Shown in pieces: positions 2,602-40,067 of a DNA stretch of 40,067 bases (position 1 is its first letter; each line of letters begins with the position of its first letter). The notes beneath the pieces are model-generated. The model made no database searches. It worked only from the letters and a program-made list of their open reading frames with translations, and was not told the origin of the DNA. The translations under genes were made by a program, and so were the position numbers. The DNA comes from a virus (Duplodnaviria; Heunggongvirae; Uroviricota; Caudoviricetes): the IMG/VR virus record IMGVR_UViG_2585427781_000002; one strand, written 5' to 3'.

Positions 2602-6003
<3,402 letters not shown>

Positions 6004-6060
6004 TCACGCTCCATAAACGACAAAACCGCCCGGAGGCGGTTTCACATAAAACATTTTGCA

Positions 6061-6708
6061 TCAGCGACCAATCACCACAACCTGACCACCATCCCCTTCG
6101 TCTGCCGTGCTGATCTCCTGAGAAACCACCCGCGACCCCACGCGCATTTCACCGTACAGAACAGGCAAAACATTGCCCTGGGCAACCATGTTATCCAGTG
6201 AGGAGAAATAGGTGTTCTGTTTGCCGTTATCTGTACTGGCTGCCGTGGGCGTCCTGGCTTTCGGTGCCAGCATCTGCGCCACTCCGCCCAGGATCATACT
6301 GGCCCCTGCCGCATACATGCCCGATACAGCCGCGGCACCCAGCCAGCCCACAGGGTTCCACCATGCCACCGCAATCAGCGCCGCCCCAAGCACCACCTGA
6401 AACACACCGCCACTTTTAGCTCCCGCCAGACGCGGCACGATGTGGATCACGGCACCATTTGCCAGCGGCTCATTAAGACGGGCAGATAATTCATTTTCGC
6501 CTGCATCACGCCCGGCAATGCGCACCTGATACCAGCCCTTATTCAGTTTCTGACGAAACGCCGGGAGCTGAGTGGCCAGCGCCCGGATGGCTTCGGCCCC
6601 CGTTTTCACACGAAGGTCGATGCGGCGGCCAAATCGTTGCAAATCCCCGTAAAGGCAGATGCGTGCCATGCCCGGTGACGCCAGAGGGAGTGTGTGCGTC
6701 GCTGCCAT
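6061..6708 (-). CDS. I: tail assembly protein I
   Basis: 215-aa ORF directly upstream of J, overlapping the K 3' end as in lambda; C-terminal hydrophobic Gly/Ala-rich segment. Confidence 0.8.
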   Translation of the reverse strand: MAATHTLPLASPGMARICLYGDLQRFGRRIDLRVKTGAEAIRALATQLPAFRQKLNKGWYQVRIAGRDAGENELSARLNEPLANGAVIHIVPRLAGAKSGGVFQVVLGAALIAVAWWNPVGWLGAAAVSGMYAAGASMILGGVAQMLAPKARTPTAASTDNGKQNTYFSSLDNMVAQGNVLPVLYGEMRVGSRVVSQEISTADEGDGGQVVVIGR

Positions 6709-7349
6709 TTGTCGGTATACCTCTCTCGTTTGCTCAGTTGTTCAGGAATATGGTGCAGCAGCTCGCCGTCGCCGCAGTAAATAGCGGCATGATTCGGCAC
6801 CGATGAACCAAAACAGCACAGCAGCACATCGCCCGGCTGCGCCGCTGACAACGGCACCTGATACAGCCCTGTAGCCTCCAGATTATCCAGATAGAGATTC
6901 TGACCGTTACGCCACCAGTCATCCCCGCGATGAAAATCCGGCATCTCAATCCCCGCCAGATGGTAAGCATCCCGGAACAGCGTGTAACAGTCCGTCACCC
7001 CGTGCTCAAAGCGCCGCCCGGTGAGATGCGGCACACAGCGGAATTTATGAATCTCACCCCGGCAGACCAGCCACCACGGCAAATCACTCTGCACCTGCAG
7101 CCGCCGGTCAGTCTCACTCAGCCAGGGCAGACCACCGGGGTGGCTGTGGACCAGCGCCACAATCTCACCCTGCATTTCTGCCCGCAGCCAGTCCTCCGGC
7201 GACATCCGGAAATACTCCTCCGGCTCACCGGAGATATTCACGCAGGGAAAATATCTTTCTCCCTCCGGCGTTCTCACCACGAAGCCGCACGACTCCGCTG
7301 GCGCACATCGCCGGGCGTGCGCCAGAATCGCTGATTCTGTCTCTGTCAT
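6606..7349 (-). CDS. K: tail assembly protein K (MPN/JAB plus NlpC/P60-like domains)
   Basis: 247-aa ORF with HSHPGG metal-binding motif and a downstream Cys/His peptidase-like region; position between L and I. The exact start is uncertain. Confidence 0.8.
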   Translation of the reverse strand: MTETESAILAHARRCAPAESCGFVVRTPEGERYFPCVNISGEPEEYFRMSPEDWLRAEMQGEIVALVHSHPGGLPWLSETDRRLQVQSDLPWWLVCRGEIHKFRCVPHLTGRRFEHGVTDCYTLFRDAYHLAGIEMPDFHRGDDWWRNGQNLYLDNLEATGLYQVPLSAAQPGDVLLCCFGSSVPNHAAIYCGDGELLHHIPEQLSKRERYTDKWQRRTHSLWRHRAWHASAFTGICNDLAAASTFV

Positions 7350-8062: not shown

Positions 8063-8392
8063 CTATGCCACGACCTGTTCAAAATCTGCCGTTATGGTTA
8101 CCCACAGCGCCCCCACGCTTGCCGACCATTTACGACAAACCACCCTAATCGGTTTCCAGTCATAAGGTGGCGTCCACTGAAATGCGCGGACGCCACCGTG
8201 CCGTTCCAGAAAGGCTTTTAAAGATGGGTGTTCACATTTACGAACACGTATCGTCACGCTGTAAGTCGACAACTGGTTATTCAGTCCCGCCGCACGACGC
8301 TGTTCATAACCATCGCCCAGCTTCACTGTCACCACTTTCGGCTCTGATACCACATTCATATCCGGGCGCACTTTCCAGTGAAACGTCTCCAT
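8063..8392 (-). CDS. M: minor tail protein M
   Basis: 109-aa ORF, same length as lambda M, immediately downstream of H with a 1-nt overlap. Confidence 0.9.
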   Translation of the reverse strand: METFHWKVRPDMNVVSEPKVVTVKLGDGYEQRRAAGLNNQLSTYSVTIRVRKCEHPSLKAFLERHGGVRAFQWTPPYDWKPIRVVCRKWSASVGALWVTITADFEQVVA

Positions 8393-11076
8393 TACCGATA
8401 TGCTCCACTTAACCGACCACCATCACGGGCCTGCTGTTGCATAAAGTCCGCTGCTGCTTTTTTCCCGAGGTCATAAACCACCTTCAGGGCAGCCGGACCT
8501 ATCTGCCCGTTCGTGCCATCGTTATTGATCTCGATGTTGTACTGCGGGGCAAACATCGCCATACCTGAACCACCAATATCCGCCACAACCCCCAGCTTAC
8601 CGTCAGCACCACGACGCAGAGGCAGAATGGCTTCAGGCCCAGCTTCCCCCATCACACCTGCACCTTTTGCAAAAGCAAAAAACGTCGGACGGTTAACCAC
8701 CGTGCCACTGTAGCGACTCAAATCAGCAGACTGATAAACACCACCATCAGCATTGGGCGTCACACTGGCAGTTGCTGCACTCCCCCAGCCAAACGCCGAA
8801 CCAATCCCCTTAACTGTCTGCATCATGGACATCTGAGCCATGATTTTTGCCAGATCAGAAAGGAGCGAGGCGGTAAAAGATTTGAAGTTCAGTTTTCCGG
8901 TGGTACAGAATGTAGCCAGTGCATTACCTGCACTATTAAATGCCGCTGTAAGCATCTGCTCCGCAGTGCCTGCCGCATTATCCGCATCTGCCGTGAAATT
9001 CTGAAACGCCCGCATGGCACCGTTTTTCCAGTTACCCTGAGCAATTTCAAGCTGTTGCCAGTAACGGCGATTCTCATTCAGTTGCCTGTTCAGGCTCTCC
9101 GTCAGCGCCTGCTCGGCCTTTCTGTAGTCATCCGTGTTATATGTCCCTTTCTGCTCACTATCCCGCCTCAACTGCTCCAGCTGTTGCTGGTATTTCTGGC
9201 GAAGGCTCAGTTGTACCTGATATCGCTGCCGCTGCTGATCACCCATACCCACCGTGGCGATATCCAGGTCATGTTGCTGACGCTGAGCGCGCTCTTCTTC
9301 AGCCAGTTGACTGGTCAGCTGAATTGTTTTTTTCTTCAGATCGTTGAGTGCCGTCTGTTTCTGAAGCTCCTGCTGTTTTACATCCAGCAGCGTCAGTGCC
9401 TGAATCAGTTCATCTTTACGGGCCAGCACACTCTTTTCATCTGCCGTCAGTTTTTTCCCGTCCAGATCGCTGATGCGCTGCTGCAGAGCCAGAAGCTGTT
9501 TATGCGCTTCTGTCATCTTTTCAGTGGCAATGCCTGCTGACTGTCTTGCAGCAGCAATCTGTCCTTCCACCTGTGCCTGTTGCTGGCTGTACTGCAGCAA
9601 TAACCGGGTGGCCTCATCATTACGGGTTTCGCGTGTTTTTTTCTTACCGGATGCCAGGGCTTTCTCGTAACGTTCATTTTCACGTTGTATCGCCGCATCC
9701 CTGACAGCCTGATCGGCGTACTGCATGGCATTAATACGCGCAATTTCACGCTGATGTCGTGCTGCTTCCGTTTCATTCATCCGGTTCAGTGCAGCATTTT
9801 CAGCATTACGGCGTTTCTGTTGCTCCTGATAATTCCGCTCTGCCTGCTCTTTTGCATCCTGCAAATCCTTCTGGCGTTTTTTCTCCTGAAGATCGTTAAG
9901 ACGCTGCTGATCGTATTCAACCTGAGAAGATGATGCCGTCCAGGGGAGTCTTTTCGCCCGCGACACTTTCTCCTGTAAAGCGGCAATCTGTTCATCCAGC
10001 GAGTCTTCACGACCAATATTCATGGCCGCATCCCAGAAACGACTCCACAAATCAGACAGATACTTCAGCGTACTGCCAAGCGCATTGAGGTTATTATCAA
10101 TATCCGCAGTACGCCGACCGGTTTCCTCTGCCAGTGCAGACATGGCTATCCGTGCAGCATCACTGGACCGCCCCTGCTCCCCAAGGACGCGTATCTGCTC
10201 AAGCTGAGTGGCAGTAAGAAAATGCAGCTCATTGTCCAGAGCCTTCGCGGCATTTACAGGATCATCCTTCAGCCGCTTAAACTGATTTATGGTATCGCTG
10301 ACCGACTGGCCAACCGATCGCTCCATCTGTGCGGCAGCTCTCGCCACCATACCGATATCGTTTCCACGAAATGCACCACTCCCCACCACCTGAGCCAGCG
10401 CACCGGCTGCAGCATGTTGCGTGATACCATTCCCGGAAATAGCACGACTGAGCGTCCACAGCTGCCCGGCAGTAACTCCGGCATAATGCCCCGTCAGCGA
10501 CAACTGGCGGTTAAATTCTTCCCCCTCCTTCTGACCGTCATACCAGGCTTTACCCAGACCATAGACGGCCGCGGCAATACCGCCAATAACCCCGCCAAGC
10601 ATCATGCCTTTCGGTGACATCAGTGTGTCTATCCATCCGGCACGGTTAGCCAGCGTTATCCCGGATCCCCTCAGCGCCCCTAAATTGCCGCGGGCCAGTT
10701 CACCTATCAGAACGCCTATCTCCTGGCGGGCTGCTGCACTTTTCAGACCCAGCGAATGCGTGGCTTTTCCTGCCTGCTCCATTTTGCGGATATACACTTC
10801 TGCAGCACTGCTTACCCCCAGCTGGGCTGCCTTAGCACGAAGCAACTCAGAAGATGAAAGATTCTGGCGGGTTGCCTGCTCTTTAAGCTGACGGATAAAC
10901 GCCACTTTCTGTCGGGTAGCCTCTTCCTCAGCCTGTGTAAGAACACGGGTTTTCGCCGTAACCTCAGAAATCAGCGCCAGATAATCCTGCTGACCAATCC
11001 CGCCACTGTTTCTGGCCTGTCGGATCTGCTGCTGAATACGCTGTAATTCCTGCAGCCCCGCACTGGCCTGTTTCAC
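8392..11076 (-). CDS. H: tail tape-measure protein H, portion downstream of an in-frame TAG
   Basis: 894-aa ORF with long coiled-coil Q/R/E-rich repeats and C-terminus ...NNDGTNGQIGPAALKVVYDLGKKAAADFMQQQARDGGRLSGAYR, matching the lambda H C-terminus as remembered. The track ORF begins at a GTG right after the amber codon. Confidence 0.85.
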   Translation of the reverse strand: MKQASAGLQELQRIQQQIRQARNSGGIGQQDYLALISEVTAKTRVLTQAEEEATRQKVAFIRQLKEQATRQNLSSSELLRAKAAQLGVSSAAEVYIRKMEQAGKATHSLGLKSAAARQEIGVLIGELARGNLGALRGSGITLANRAGWIDTLMSPKGMMLGGVIGGIAAAVYGLGKAWYDGQKEGEEFNRQLSLTGHYAGVTAGQLWTLSRAISGNGITQHAAAGALAQVVGSGAFRGNDIGMVARAAAQMERSVGQSVSDTINQFKRLKDDPVNAAKALDNELHFLTATQLEQIRVLGEQGRSSDAARIAMSALAEETGRRTADIDNNLNALGSTLKYLSDLWSRFWDAAMNIGREDSLDEQIAALQEKVSRAKRLPWTASSSQVEYDQQRLNDLQEKKRQKDLQDAKEQAERNYQEQQKRRNAENAALNRMNETEAARHQREIARINAMQYADQAVRDAAIQRENERYEKALASGKKKTRETRNDEATRLLLQYSQQQAQVEGQIAAARQSAGIATEKMTEAHKQLLALQQRISDLDGKKLTADEKSVLARKDELIQALTLLDVKQQELQKQTALNDLKKKTIQLTSQLAEEERAQRQQHDLDIATVGMGDQQRQRYQVQLSLRQKYQQQLEQLRRDSEQKGTYNTDDYRKAEQALTESLNRQLNENRRYWQQLEIAQGNWKNGAMRAFQNFTADADNAAGTAEQMLTAAFNSAGNALATFCTTGKLNFKSFTASLLSDLAKIMAQMSMMQTVKGIGSAFGWGSAATASVTPNADGGVYQSADLSRYSGTVVNRPTFFAFAKGAGVMGEAGPEAILPLRRGADGKLGVVADIGGSGMAMFAPQYNIEINNDGTNGQIGPAALKVVYDLGKKAAADFMQQQARDGGRLSGAYR

Positions 11077-11088
11077 ACTGTCAATCTA

Positions 11089-11466
11089 ACGATAAAACGC
11101 AGCAGCCGCTTTATCCTGAGCCTCCGCCAGAGCCATGGCCTGCGCCTGTTCATCGCGCATTTTCTGGCTCAGCGCCTCCATGCGCTGGCGGGTTTTCTCC
11201 ACCTCGCGGGCCATGCGTTCATGAGCCTGTGCGTTCTTCTCCACCGTCTGCGCATGGACGGAGGCGGCTGTTGCAGCCGAAGAAGCCGCCTGCGTTGTCT
11301 GCCGGGCGGCCTGAGTCTGACGCTCCATAAAACGCTGCATACGGGCAGAAGACCGTTCTGCATCGCTGGCGGCACCATTCAGAAGGTTTTTGATACGGGG
11401 AATTTCATTTTTAAACTCTGCCGCATCAATCCCCAAATCAATGACCAGGTTGGCTATCTGGTCCAT
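11089..11466 (-). CDS. H: tail tape-measure protein H, N-terminal portion upstream of the in-frame TAG (11086-11088)
   Basis: Same reading frame as the 894-aa ORF, separated only by TAG. From ATG at 11466, MDQIANLVIDLGIDAAEFKNEIPRIKNLL... aligns with the lambda H N-terminus (..GDLVVDLSLDAARFDEQMARV..). Confidence 0.7.
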
Positions 11467-33129: not shown

Positions 33130-33878
33130 AAGTCCTCCTTAAAGGCAGCCTGTTCGTAAAGGTTCACGATCCGCCCCCAAATCCACTGCGCACACGCCAA
33201 ATCCTCCCTGCTACCCCACTGGCGTTTTTTCGCACTAAACACAACCGCGTCGGGGTTCCGGATTAAAAAATCCTGTTCAGCGGTCTGCAGGTCCGGTTGC
33301 GAAGCTTCCGGACGAAAAGTGTTTTTATTCTCTGTAGTAATCTCTGTTGTATTCTCTGTAAGATCATCAGGCCATTTTGACCCGATGACATTGGGTCGTT
33401 TTGAACCAATGGAGCGTTTCATTTTGACCTCTTCCATCGTGTCATTTTGACCTGATGGAGCGGCGCATTTTGAACCGATGGATTCGTTCAATTTGCCACC
33501 ATCTAAAAGCTCGCTCCCATAGTTGATCGTGTAGAAATTGGTCATATCGCGCTTTGATTTATTGAGCTTTTCACAACGCAAAAGCCCCAGCGTTTTCAGA
33601 CTTGCAAACGCGCGCTTTAACGTTGACTCTGACCAGAATGGGAACTGTTCCAGCCATTGTTCCGTTGTGTTGTAAATCCAGCGAACACCATCACATTCCA
33701 TGCCGGAATTGGTATCTCTCAACCAGTAATGCAACTGCTGCAACACAATGGCTTCATTTAAGCCAATCTTCATCGCAAGCTGTGTGTTTATAACCAGTGG
33801 GCGTTCAGCAAAAAGAAGGCTCATAATTCCATCCAGCTTTTTGTTGGTATTGCTGTCGATACGCAAGTTTGAAAGCAA
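33003..33878 (-). CDS. replication initiator, lambda O-like (replisome organizer N-terminal domain)
   Basis: N-terminal ..LNEAIVLQQLHYWLRDTN...RWIYNTTEQWLEQFPFWSESTLKRAFASLKTLGLL.. resembles phage replisome-organizer domains; the central SIGSK repeats are encoded by the iteron array inside the gene. The start may be an internal Met. Confidence 0.7.
   Translation of the reverse strand: MLSNLRIDSNTNKKLDGIMSLLFAERPLVINTQLAMKIGLNEAIVLQQLHYWLRDTNSGMECDGVRWIYNTTEQWLEQFPFWSESTLKRAFASLKTLGLLRCEKLNKSKRDMTNFYTINYGSELLDGGKLNESIGSKCAAPSGQNDTMEEVKMKRSIGSKRPNVIGSKWPDDLTENTTEITTENKNTFRPEASQPDLQTAEQDFLIRNPDAVVFSAKKRQWGSREDLACAQWIWGRIVNLYEQAAFKEDLWQKFLHRKSGKKLKSRWSNLCARAVARHYDSWKLKQVRQDI
33373..33500. repeat. 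iteron array (candidate origin of replication) inside the O-like gene
   Basis: Six direct repeats of CATTTTGA(A/C)C(N)GATGG-like units at about 23-bp spacing (starts near 33373, 33397, 33420, 33443, 33466, 33489), the last one degenerate. Confidence 0.65.
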
Positions 33879-36885: not shown

Positions 36886-39357
36886 ATGAGTAAAGTCTTT
36901 ATTTGCGCCGCTATTCCTGACGAACTGGCAACAAGGGAAGAAGGCGCTGTGGCTGTAGCCACAGCCATTGAAGCTGGCGACGAACGCCGTGCTCGAGCAA
37001 AATTTCACTGGCAGTTCCTGGAACATTATCCGGCTGCTCAGGACTGCGCTTATAAATTTATTGTCTGCGAGGATAAACCTGGCATACCCCGCCCTGCCCT
37101 CGATTCATGGGATGCTGAATATATGCAGGAAAACCGCTGGGATGAGGAGTCTGCTTCTTTTGTCCCGGTTGAGACTGAATCCGATCCGATGAACGTCACT
37201 TTTGACAAGCTGGCCCCTGAAGTACAGAACGCTGTCATGGTTAAGTTCGACACATGTGAAAACATCACCGTTGATATGGTTATTAGCGCACAGGAATTGT
37301 TGCAGGAAGACATGGCAACATTCGACGGACATATCGTTGAAGCGTTGATGAAAATGCCAGAAGTTAACGCCATGTATCCGGAGCTTAAGTTGCACGCCAT
37401 TGGGTGGGTTAAGCATAAATGTATTCCTGGTGCTAAATGGCCCGAAATTCAGGCAGAGATGCGCATCTGGAAAAAACGTCGCGAAGGTGAACGCAAGGAA
37501 ACCGGAAAATACACGTCTGTTGTTGATCTCGCCCGCGCCAGAGCCAATCAACAGTACACTGAAAATTCAACAGGAAAAATCAGCCCGGTCATTGCTGCCA
37601 TTCATCGCGAATACAAGCAGACATGGAAAACACTGGATGACGAACTGGCCTACGCTCTCTGGCCTGGTGATGTGGATGCCGGAAACATTGACGGCAGCAT
37701 CCATCGCTGGGCAAAAAAAGAAGTTATCGACAACGACCGCGAAGACTGGAAGCGTATCTCGGCATCAATGCGCAAACAGCCTGATGCCCTTCGCTACGAC
37801 CGCCAGACTATTTTTGGCCTTGTCCGTGAGCGTCCGATCGACATTCACAAAGATCCCATAGCACTGAACAAATATATCTGCGAATACCTGACGACAAAGG
37901 GCGTGTTTGAGAATGAAGAAACAGACCTGGGCACTGTTGATGTTCTCCAGTCATCAGAAACACAAACTGATGCAGTGGAAACTGAGGTATCTGATATCCC
38001 AAAAAATGAAACCGCGCCGGAAGCTGAACCATCTGTAGAGCGTGAGGGGCCGTTCTATTTCCTCTTCGCAGATAAGGACGGAGAAAAATACGGTCGCGCA
38101 AACAAACTTTCTGGTCTGGATAAGGCACTGGCTGCTGGCGCCACTGAAATCACAAAAGAAGAATATTTTGCCCGAAAAAATGGCACATACACGGGCTTAC
38201 CGCAAAATGTAGATACCGCTGAAGATTCAGAACAACCAGAGCCGATAAAAGTTACCGCTGACGAAGTAAACAAAATTATGCAGGCAGCCAATATCAGCCA
38301 GCCTGACGCCGATAAGTTGCTTGCTGCATCACGTGGTGAATTTGTTGAAGGGATTAGTGACCCGAATGATCCGAAATGGGTTAAGGGGATCCAGACCCGC
38401 GATTCTGTGAACCAGAACCAGCATAAATCGGAACGGAACTACCAAAAAGCGGAACAAAACAGCACAAATGCGTTACAAAACGAGCCAGAAACGAAACAGC
38501 CTGAACCAGTGGCGCAACAGGAAGTGGAAAAAGTCTGCACCGCCTGCGGTCAGACCGGCGGCGGCAACTGCCCTGATTGTGGCGCGGTGATGGGCGACGC
38601 AACATATCAAGAAACATTCGATGAAGAATATCAGGTTGAAGTTCAGGAAGATGATCCGGAGGAAATGGAAGGCGCTGAACATCCACACAAGGAGAACACT
38701 GGCGGCAATCAGCATCACAATAGCGATAATGAAACTGGCGAGACGGCAGATCACTCAATTAAGGTGAACGGTCATCACGAAATCACATCCACCAGCAGGA
38801 CGTGTGACCATCTAATGATCGACCTTGAAACCATGGGAAAAAATCCTGATGCCCCGATCATCTCAATAGGTGCAATATTTTTCGATCCGCAAACCGGAGA
38901 TATGGGACCGGAATTTAGTAAGACTATCGATCTGGAAACTGCTGGCGGAGTCATTGATCGGAACACCATTAAATGGTGGCTTAAGCAATCACGCGAAGCG
39001 CAATCTGCCATTATGACCGATGAAATCCCGTTAGATGATGCACTGTTACAATTGCGGGAATTTATCGACGAAAACTCCGGTGAATTTTTTGTTCAGGTTT
39101 GGGGAAATGGAGCCAACTTCGACAACACGATTTTGCGCCGTTCATACGAACGGCAGGGGATCCCCTGCCCGTGGCGTTACTACAACGATCGCGATGTACG
39201 CACAATCGTTGAGCTGGGGAAAGCCATAGACTTCGATGCCAGAACGGCTATTCCATTCGAAGGTGAGCGCCATAATGCACTTGATGACGCCCGTTACCAG
39301 GCAAAATACGTTTCAGTTATCTGGCAAAAACTGATCCCGAGTCAGGCTGATTCTTAA
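36886..39357 (+). CDS. large early-region protein with a C-terminal DnaQ-like (DEDDh) 3'-5' exonuclease domain
   Basis: 823-aa ORF with GAGGT RBS; C-terminal ~200 aa carry exonuclease motifs (MIDLETMG..., ..GNGANFDNTIL.., ..HNALDDARYQA..); a central CxxC...CPDC zinc ribbon; N-terminal ~550 aa acidic and of unknown function. Confidence 0.6.
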   Translation: MSKVFICAAIPDELATREEGAVAVATAIEAGDERRARAKFHWQFLEHYPAAQDCAYKFIVCEDKPGIPRPALDSWDAEYMQENRWDEESASFVPVETESDPMNVTFDKLAPEVQNAVMVKFDTCENITVDMVISAQELLQEDMATFDGHIVEALMKMPEVNAMYPELKLHAIGWVKHKCIPGAKWPEIQAEMRIWKKRREGERKETGKYTSVVDLARARANQQYTENSTGKISPVIAAIHREYKQTWKTLDDELAYALWPGDVDAGNIDGSIHRWAKKEVIDNDREDWKRISASMRKQPDALRYDRQTIFGLVRERPIDIHKDPIALNKYICEYLTTKGVFENEETDLGTVDVLQSSETQTDAVETEVSDIPKNETAPEAEPSVEREGPFYFLFADKDGEKYGRANKLSGLDKALAAGATEITKEEYFARKNGTYTGLPQNVDTAEDSEQPEPIKVTADEVNKIMQAANISQPDADKLLAASRGEFVEGISDPNDPKWVKGIQTRDSVNQNQHKSERNYQKAEQNSTNALQNEPETKQPEPVAQQEVEKVCTACGQTGGGNCPDCGAVMGDATYQETFDEEYQVEVQEDDPEEMEGAEHPHKENTGGNQHHNSDNETGETADHSIKVNGHHEITSTSRTCDHLMIDLETMGKNPDAPIISIGAIFFDPQTGDMGPEFSKTIDLETAGGVIDRNTIKWWLKQSREAQSAIMTDEIPLDDALLQLREFIDENSGEFFVQVWGNGANFDNTILRRSYERQGIPCPWRYYNDRDVRTIVELGKAIDFDARTAIPFEGERHNALDDARYQAKYVSVIWQKLIPSQADS

Positions 39358-39429: not shown

Positions 39430-39681
39430 ATGAGCGAAGTAATCATGATTGTCTCTCCCGGCAAATGGGTATCCGAAGAGCAGTTAATTGCGCTGAAAGG
39501 AATAAAAAAAGGTACGTTAAAAAAGGCCCGGGAAAAATCGTTTATGGAAGGAAGGGAATATAAGCATGTCGCTCATGACGGTATGCCATGGGATAACAGT
39601 CCATGCTTTTACAACCTGGAAGAAATTGATCGCTGGATTGAGCGCCAGGCATCAGCGAGACCAAGACGTCATCTTACTTGA
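39430..39681 (+). CDS. putative excisionase
   Basis: 83-aa ORF immediately upstream of the integrase start on the same strand; basic C-terminus. Confidence 0.55.
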   Translation: MSEVIMIVSPGKWVSEEQLIALKGIKKGTLKKAREKSFMEGREYKHVAHDGMPWDNSPCFYNLEEIDRWIERQASARPRRHLT

Positions 39682-39715: not shown

Positions 39716-39828
39716 ATGAAATATCCGACAGGCGTGGAAAACCATGGAGGGAAATTACGTATCTGGTTTGTTTATAAAGGCGTAAGAGTCAGGGAAAATC
39801 TGGGGGTTCCTGACACAGCAAAAAACAG
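39716..39828 (+). pseudogene. integrase gene 5' fragment, truncated by IS1
   Basis: ATG 39716 gives MKYPTGVENHGGKLRIWFVYKGVRVRENLGVPDTAKNR, typical of lambdoid tyrosine-integrase N-termini as remembered; the frame is cut at 39829 by the IS1 terminal inverted repeat. Confidence 0.75.
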
Positions 39829-40067
39829 GGTAATGACTCCAACTTATTGATAGTGTTTTATGTTCAGATAATGCCCGATGACTTTGTCATGCAGCTCCAC
39901 CGATTTTGAGAACGACAGCGACTTCCGTCCCAGCCGTGCCAGGTGCTGCCTCAGATTCAGGTTATGCCGCTCAATTCGCTGCGTATATCGCTTGCTGATT
40001 ACGTGCAGCTTTCCCTTCAGGCGGGATTCATACAGCGGCCAGCCATCCGTCATCCATATCACCACGT
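39829..40067 (-). mobile_element. IS1 insertion sequence (partial, runs off the right edge)
   Basis: Begins with the terminal inverted repeat GGTAATGACTCCAACTTATTGATAGTG, followed by the reverse complement of the insB 3' end. Confidence 0.9.
39844..40065 (-). CDS. insB: IS1 transposase InsB, C-terminal part
   Basis: Track ORF ...[69 protein letters not shown] matches the InsB C-terminus as remembered. Confidence 0.9.

Follow-up and report, generated by a model that had tools for sequence, protein, structure and literature searches.

An IS1A insertion in the integrase gene of a putative Qin-site prophage of Escherichia coli, with predicted loss of excision

Can a lambdoid prophage still leave its chromosome when its integrase gene runs, within a few dozen codons, into an insertion sequence? 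The question is raised by the right end of a 40,067-nt stretch of viral DNA (IMG/VR record IMGVR_UViG_2585427781_000002), referred to here as the window, meaning the whole stretch that was analysed. Its answer depends on how much of the integrase gene (int) survives, what the interrupting element is, whether the junction between them is real, and what may lie on the far side of that element, beyond the last base of the window.

The int reading frame starts at 39716 on the plus strand (it begins MKYPTGVENHGG... and reads MKYPTGVENHGGKLRIWFVYKGVRVRENLGVPDTAKNR), and this start codon is the one annotated by RefSeq in intact 426-aa homologues. Collinearity with intact 1281-nt int genes ends at 39828/39829: where the intact genes pass from ...GCAAAAAACAGG to CGCGTTGCAGG, the window passes from ...GCAAAAAACAG to GGTAATGACTCC, and the repeat runs on as GGTAATGACTCCAACTTATTGAT. 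The 5′ int fragment (39716..39828, plus strand) comprises nt 1–113, that is, codons 1–37 and two bases of codon 38. While the G at 39829 can be assigned either to int nt 114 or to the opening base of IS1, the final int codon is codon 38 (AGG) under either assignment. An earlier note on this DNA had claimed that the int frame is broken about 38 codons in by the IS1 terminal inverted repeat at 39829, and the end of homology at this point, in codon 38, bears that claim out.

In the list of open reading frames, the interrupted gene appears as a chimeric 44-aa ORF (39716..39850, plus strand) that starts MKYP and consists of Int residues 1–38 followed by VMTPTY and a stop codon from the IS1 terminus. 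Its product matches the Pfam family Arm-DNA-bind_2 (PF12167, E = 2.5e-11) over profile positions 1–36 of 65; by this measure, the 5′ int fragment codes for about half of the arm-DNA-binding domain. Intact 426-aa homologues bear both PF12167 and the catalytic domain PF00589, the latter of which is absent from the int frame of the window; that frame ends within IS1, at 39850. The int gene here is a disrupted pseudogene. Judging from the sequence, the presumed IS1 target is AAAAAACAG (39820..39828, plus strand; int nt 105–113), which includes a run of six A residues (A6) at 39820–39825; a simple insertion with a 9-bp duplication would repeat it beyond the far end of IS1.

Two features identify the interrupting element as a member of IS1: a right-end inverted repeat and part of the InsAB′ DDE transposase are both present. 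The right-end 239 nt of an IS1A element (39829..40067) lie on the minus strand, in inverse orientation, and are ended by the window itself. They open with the terminal inverted repeat of the right end (IRR; GGTAATGACTCCAACTTATTGAT, 39829–39851, about 23 bp, beginning GGTAATGACTCC), and the 3′ part of insB is read on the minus strand at 39844–40065 (Pfam DDE_Tnp_IS1, PF03400, positions 59–131 of 131, E = 6.7e-39), in agreement with the earlier statement that IS1 lies inverse to int. The InsB portion in the window consists of the C-terminal 73 residues only.

All 239 nt (39829–40067) match the annotated 768-bp IS1A of E. coli strain GDSC2227PM with 0 mismatches, and positions 39829–39851 are identical to the end of that element. 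Copies of IS1 in several phage records are 100% identical across the aligned 239–241 nt, and identity is 99.6% in two P1 records, where the matching place carries the annotation 'terminal IR of IS1'. The match of the sequence within int to IS1 is far beyond chance. The window contains only the IRR-proximal 239 nt of the element, and every public contig with this junction likewise ends in IS1.

The window almost certainly represents an entire contig from short-read assembly, broken inside a repeated IS1. An IS1-dominated query had a median of 10 matches per E. coli genome, and the window presumably stops 239 nt into IS1 because the assembler was unable to extend through such a multi-copy repeat. 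In contig JOQK01000037.1 (40,012 nt; GCA_000714055.1; E. coli 4-203-08_S3_C2), int is also found at 39716, and the two contigs therefore share their starting base; 6 differences separate them across the last 10.3 kb. The window contig is best read as stemming from a sibling isolate of E. coli 4-203-08_S3_C2. A Shigella source, suggested by the IS1 load, was considered and rejected, since the chimeric int–IS1 protein is on record from this E. coli strain. Both ends of the window (1 and 40067) look like repeat-induced contig breaks, which would place the left end of the prophage and both att sites outside it. Position 1, the start shared with JOQK01000037.1, falls in the tail-fibre region.

The position of the junction at the extreme end of a short-read contig, together with the multi-copy nature of IS1, might suggest an assembly artefact, in which a chimeric contig end joins int to an unrelated IS1 copy. 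The identical junction, however, is present in at least four further assemblies, which come from different projects and assemblers. The 44-aa form of the chimeric ORF occurs in GCA_000714055.1 (KEL07864.1, 'hypothetical protein', from E. coli 4-203-08_S3_C2, identical to the window chimera), in GCA_003292995.1, and in a 3,538-nt Logan contig assembled from raw reads (SRR12234525), while GCA_958328675.1 has a 49-aa form called from an upstream ATG. All of the junction contigs end about 0–185 nt past the IS1 boundary, and in one assembly a second IS1 flanks the junction. Since the junction recurs in independent assemblies, including the raw-read Logan assembly, we regard it as real and reject an assembly chimera, the chance of which we consider negligible.

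The second IS1 in GCA_958328675.1 lies within xis. Positions 1–430 of its contig CATUEO010000208.1 place the left end of this copy 280 bp upstream of the junction, in the same orientation and at the equivalent of window position 39549, so that the 430 bp are laid out as an IS1 end, the 3′ part of xis with the 5′ part of int, and another IS1 end. Decay has gone further in this lineage, and the layout would favour deletion between the two IS1 copies.

In 5,426 complete E. coli genomes, no place spanning the junction was found with a 100-nt query; apparent full-coverage matches in complete genomes were considered as instances of the same junction and rejected, as they represent IS1 copies elsewhere near xis and int (for example, between the exonuclease gene and xis in TUM17668, and after int nt 346 in GDSC2227PM). 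An exact junction scan of GTDB species representatives and IMG/VR found none. Short 'partial' N-terminal int proteins from the same 90% cluster were also considered as additional IS junctions and were set aside: those read keep native int to their end, with the exception of an A7 frameshift allele discussed below.

The DNA upstream of the junction indicates that the interrupted gene belongs to a lambdoid prophage of about full length, located beside rspB at the Qin site. Pfam families on the near-identical contig, together with RefSeq annotation of collinear prophages, give the gene order of that site: dicC, a dicA-like HTH gene, a ydfA-type DUF1391 gene, dicB, ydfD, a ydfE-type exonuclease gene, xis and int. 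The exonuclease gene (36886–39357, plus strand) encodes 823 aa with an Rv2179c-like domain. The xis gene that follows (39430..39681, plus strand) encodes 83 aa, matches the Pfam putative excisionase family PF06806 (E = 1.6e-31), and corresponds to WP_000005552.1 of E. coli EA13 with no mismatch; the excisionase upstream of the break is intact, as had been claimed. All of the complete-genome relatives that were examined have rspB-rspA-ynfA after xis and int, a flank that here lies beyond the window, and an intact 426-aa int precedes rspB-rspA-ynfA in E2863, EA13, 2017.03.02CC and others.

Among finished genomes, the closest relative is E. coli EA13, in which int is intact. Positions 10000–39828 of the window align with the EA13 prophage without gaps and with 18 mismatches in 29,829 nt (99.94% over 29.8 kb), none of them past 36102. 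The int gene itself is widespread, being present in 3,051 of the 5,426 complete E. coli genomes. The xis gene and the 5′ end of int are also 99.5–99.8% identical to the phage records HannyBb, Tritos, PhiR42_1 and mEp460_ev081, which have an integrase annotated under the match; the alignments stop at the IS1 boundary, and the comparison is one of the xis/int 5′ region. On the strength of that match, this int type belongs to deposited phage genomes.

We propose that int of this lambdoid prophage (~40 kb, at the Qin site of E. coli, beside rspB) received a copy of IS1A by transposition. The insertion follows int nt 113/114, where the target is rich in A, and the direction of IS1 transcription opposes that of int. 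Translation from the int start would end six codons into IS1, yielding a 44-aa peptide with about half of the arm-binding domain and without a core-binding or catalytic domain. Any downstream int remnant would likewise lack the arm-binding N-terminus. IS1 insertions are polar in either orientation, and lambda Int depends on its N-terminal arm-binding domain to bind arm sites and to carry out full excisive recombination. Given this polarity, and with the arm-binding N-terminus missing from a downstream remnant, no functional Int would be expected; for the same two reasons, a restart of translation in the far end of IS1 would not be expected to give a working enzyme.

Loss of Int function is thus well supported, and Int/Xis-dependent excision would be either abolished or reduced to the rare frequency at which IS1 is precisely lost. 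The insertion almost certainly stops excision of the prophage, to judge from the gene structure. The earlier note had suggested such a block, and as an inference it is supported both by the position of the cut within the arm-binding domain of Int and by the precedent of K-12, where intQ::IS2 is accompanied by undetectable Qin excision (PMC3105296).

To define what might be made from the far side, the far junction was modelled as IS1 followed by an 8, 9 or 10-bp duplication and the remainder of int. With a 9-bp duplication, a simple insertion would read ...GGCAGCATCACC followed by AAAAAACAG and GCGCGTTGCAGG..., and on through int to rspB; the same far junction can also be written as ...AAGTTGGCAGCATCACC followed by AAAAAACAG and GCGCGTTGCAGG.... 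In the 9-bp model, an in-frame TTG located 14 nt inside the IS1 left repeat opens a 396-codon ORF (MAASPKNRR...), from which an N-truncated Int might be translated. Int function could survive in this way, or through a compatible Int supplied in trans, conceivably by a second prophage of that genome, and the prophage would then still excise.

We consider survival of Int function by either route to be very unlikely. The TTG has no Shine-Dalgarno sequence upstream, its product would lack Int residues 1–35 of the arm-binding domain, and the polarity of IS1 would act against expression. The predicted 396-aa TTG-start protein was sought for five int variants of the closest relatives, and none is on record for any of the five. 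Other E. coli integrases that were returned are only ~59% identical. The reading that we prefer remains that of an int gene without a functional product.

A different alternative concerns the extent of the damage. Because the window ends inside IS1 and leaves the far side unconstrained, the element could mark the breakpoint of a rearrangement (an adjacent deletion, an inversion or IS1–IS1 recombination) in which the rest of int and attR were removed or displaced, so that the prophage would be truncated besides lacking Int. At almost this point K-12 has a truncated IS2, together with which xis, the 5′ end of int and the 3′ end of ydfE have been lost, and the second, same-orientation IS1 in xis of GCA_958328675.1, 280 bp off, makes that locus prone to IS1–IS1 recombination. 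IS1 copies are mostly simple insertions, however, and in int of GDSC2227PM the entire 768-bp IS1 is present, with 8 bp of target duplicated and the remaining int following directly.

Also counting against a breakpoint is the existence of a C-terminal int remnant. A 264-aa remnant starting from Met163 is on record for three int variants, one of which is the variant of three of four further close relatives (2017.03.02CC, DXMF6-3R, 30EVA1 and WP8-S17-ESBL-05), and the remnant of the closest relatives' variant exists on 16 public contigs, which are not tied to the junction strains. When metagenome, genome and viral contigs were scanned with gapped DNA patterns, the far junction was not found. On balance, we judge a rearrangement breakpoint to be unlikely, and a simple insertion, with the remaining int beyond IS1, to be about five times likelier. 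We have good confidence in the account as a whole, in which IS1A inserted in int of a Qin-site prophage, excision was lost, and the contig ended in IS1.

A close parallel is found in E. coli K-12, in which intQ′ of the cryptic prophage Qin is the same int gene (99.3% nucleotide identity over nt 122–1281) at the same rspB-side site, and in which an IS also cuts the region coding for the arm-binding domain, 8 nt away from the window's IS1 site. K-12 intQ starts at int nt 122, directly after a truncated IS2 (...GGGGCAAATCCA followed by CAGGTGAACT); the K-12 derivative PG20180050 (retrieved locus 2990–3005) shows this IS2/intQ boundary. The two loci differ in the element and in what has been retained: K-12 has an IS2, itself truncated, and has lost xis, int nt 1–121 and the ydfE 3′ end, whereas the window has IS1 and keeps xis and int nt 1–113. 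K-12 Qin is a 20-kb remnant, while the window prophage is about full length. Excision of K-12 Qin could not be detected in a published study, whose authors put this down to intQ being inactive (PMC3105296).

A survey of Qin prophages reports multiple mutations of intQ, which are described as common, and calls the prophages concerned "grounded" (PMC6379469). Grounded prophages (Ramisetty and Sudhakari 2019, PMC6379469) are, like the one described here, immobilised by a defect in a recombinase gene; that paper proposes selection for grounding, whereas the window prophage has extra replication and tail lesions. The insertion in GDSC2227PM is a parallel for the element itself, with the same gene, the same orientation relative to int, and an IS1A identical across 239 nt. 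There, IS1 follows int nt 346, and the sequence shows all 768 bp of the element, its 8-bp duplication and what remains of int, while in the window IS1 lies after nt 113 and one end is visible. Inactivation of a prophage recombinase by an IS, along with its outcome at the Qin locus, is already known and documented, and it represents ordinary prophage decay. The specific int::IS1 allele appears to be undescribed and of no particular consequence.

Three independent lesions fall within 18 nt of int (nt 105–122): IS1 after nt 113 in the window, IS2 at nt 121/122 in the K-12 lineage, and a frameshift that converts the A6 run to A7. The frameshift accounts for a 42-aa protein named 'defective integrase; Qin prophage' on 35 contigs, which is the exact product of an extra A in the A6 run (39820–39825, int nt 105–110). 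It is tempting to view this segment (codons 36–41) as a recurrent inactivation hotspot in Qin-site integrases, but three events are too few to call one, and we consider the idea doubtful. If true, it would point to a local mutational or target-site bias, or to recurring selection in favour of grounding the prophage by an early knock-out of int; under the latter, dicB, dicF and other host-useful genes would be retained.

Additional lesions were observed elsewhere in the xis–int region. In TUM17668 (retrieved locus 6103–6800), a prophage of the same type has IS1A between its exonuclease gene and xis, the latter with a shorter annotation of 210 nt, and matches in PEC422 and HCP6S3_I2 have similar spans and feature lists. 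The insertions in TUM17668 and GDSC2227PM indicate that IS1 has struck the 2-kb xis–int region at several positions. In AS19-RrmA- and strain 'C' (retrieved loci 5317–6596), the same int is frameshifted near codon 312, another independent inactivation of the gene. For BL21, the annotation of the int copy goes no further than 'Arm DNA-binding domain-containing protein'; this copy is one base shorter than the query in the alignment and probably bears the same lesion as AS19-RrmA- and strain 'C'. Finally, proteins of 555–570 aa join YdfE_N and YdfE_C exonuclease domains to arm-binding and integrase catalytic domains, at 98–99% identity; these are probably ydfE-int deletion fusions or gene calls across a lesion.

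The int gene is not the only damaged gene of this prophage. The earlier note had described its structural and lysis modules as looking intact save for an amber codon in the tape-measure gene. The amber is a TAG at 11086..11088 (minus strand), at codon 127 of 1024 in the gene at 8392–11466, and reflects one substitution relative to the CAG of EA13. The prophage is not otherwise intact, given a 311-bp deletion in an O-like replication gene (junction at 33143..33144, minus strand) and two further small pseudogenes annotated in the nearest relatives, in a region collinear and near-identical to the window. Compared with the 966-nt 'phage O protein family' gene of WP8-S17-ESBL-05, the deletion removes the C-terminal ~95 residues, a third of the protein.

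RefSeq marks the O-like remnant as a pseudogene in EA13, 2017.03.02CC, DXMF6-3R and 30EVA1. Because the deletion is common to relatives with an intact int, it probably predates the IS1 insertion. IS1 seems to have struck an already decaying prophage, as one of several lesions and not as the sole lock-in of a viable phage. "Locked-in" is a reasonable label for the prophage; "domesticated", which implies selection or host benefit, is overstated.

These results have a practical bearing on annotation, beyond which their significance is slight. Prophage predictors would rate this 40-kb element "intact", yet it lacks a functional integrase and encodes neither the tape-measure protein nor the replication initiator in full, and it should best be called defective. 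Where a stretch such as this one stops in an IS, the stop may be nothing more than the end of a draft contig, and claims about what follows it need the remaining assembly. For the prophages of the Qin site, the int::IS1 junction adds one more independent case to a pattern in which their integrases are repeatedly inactivated.
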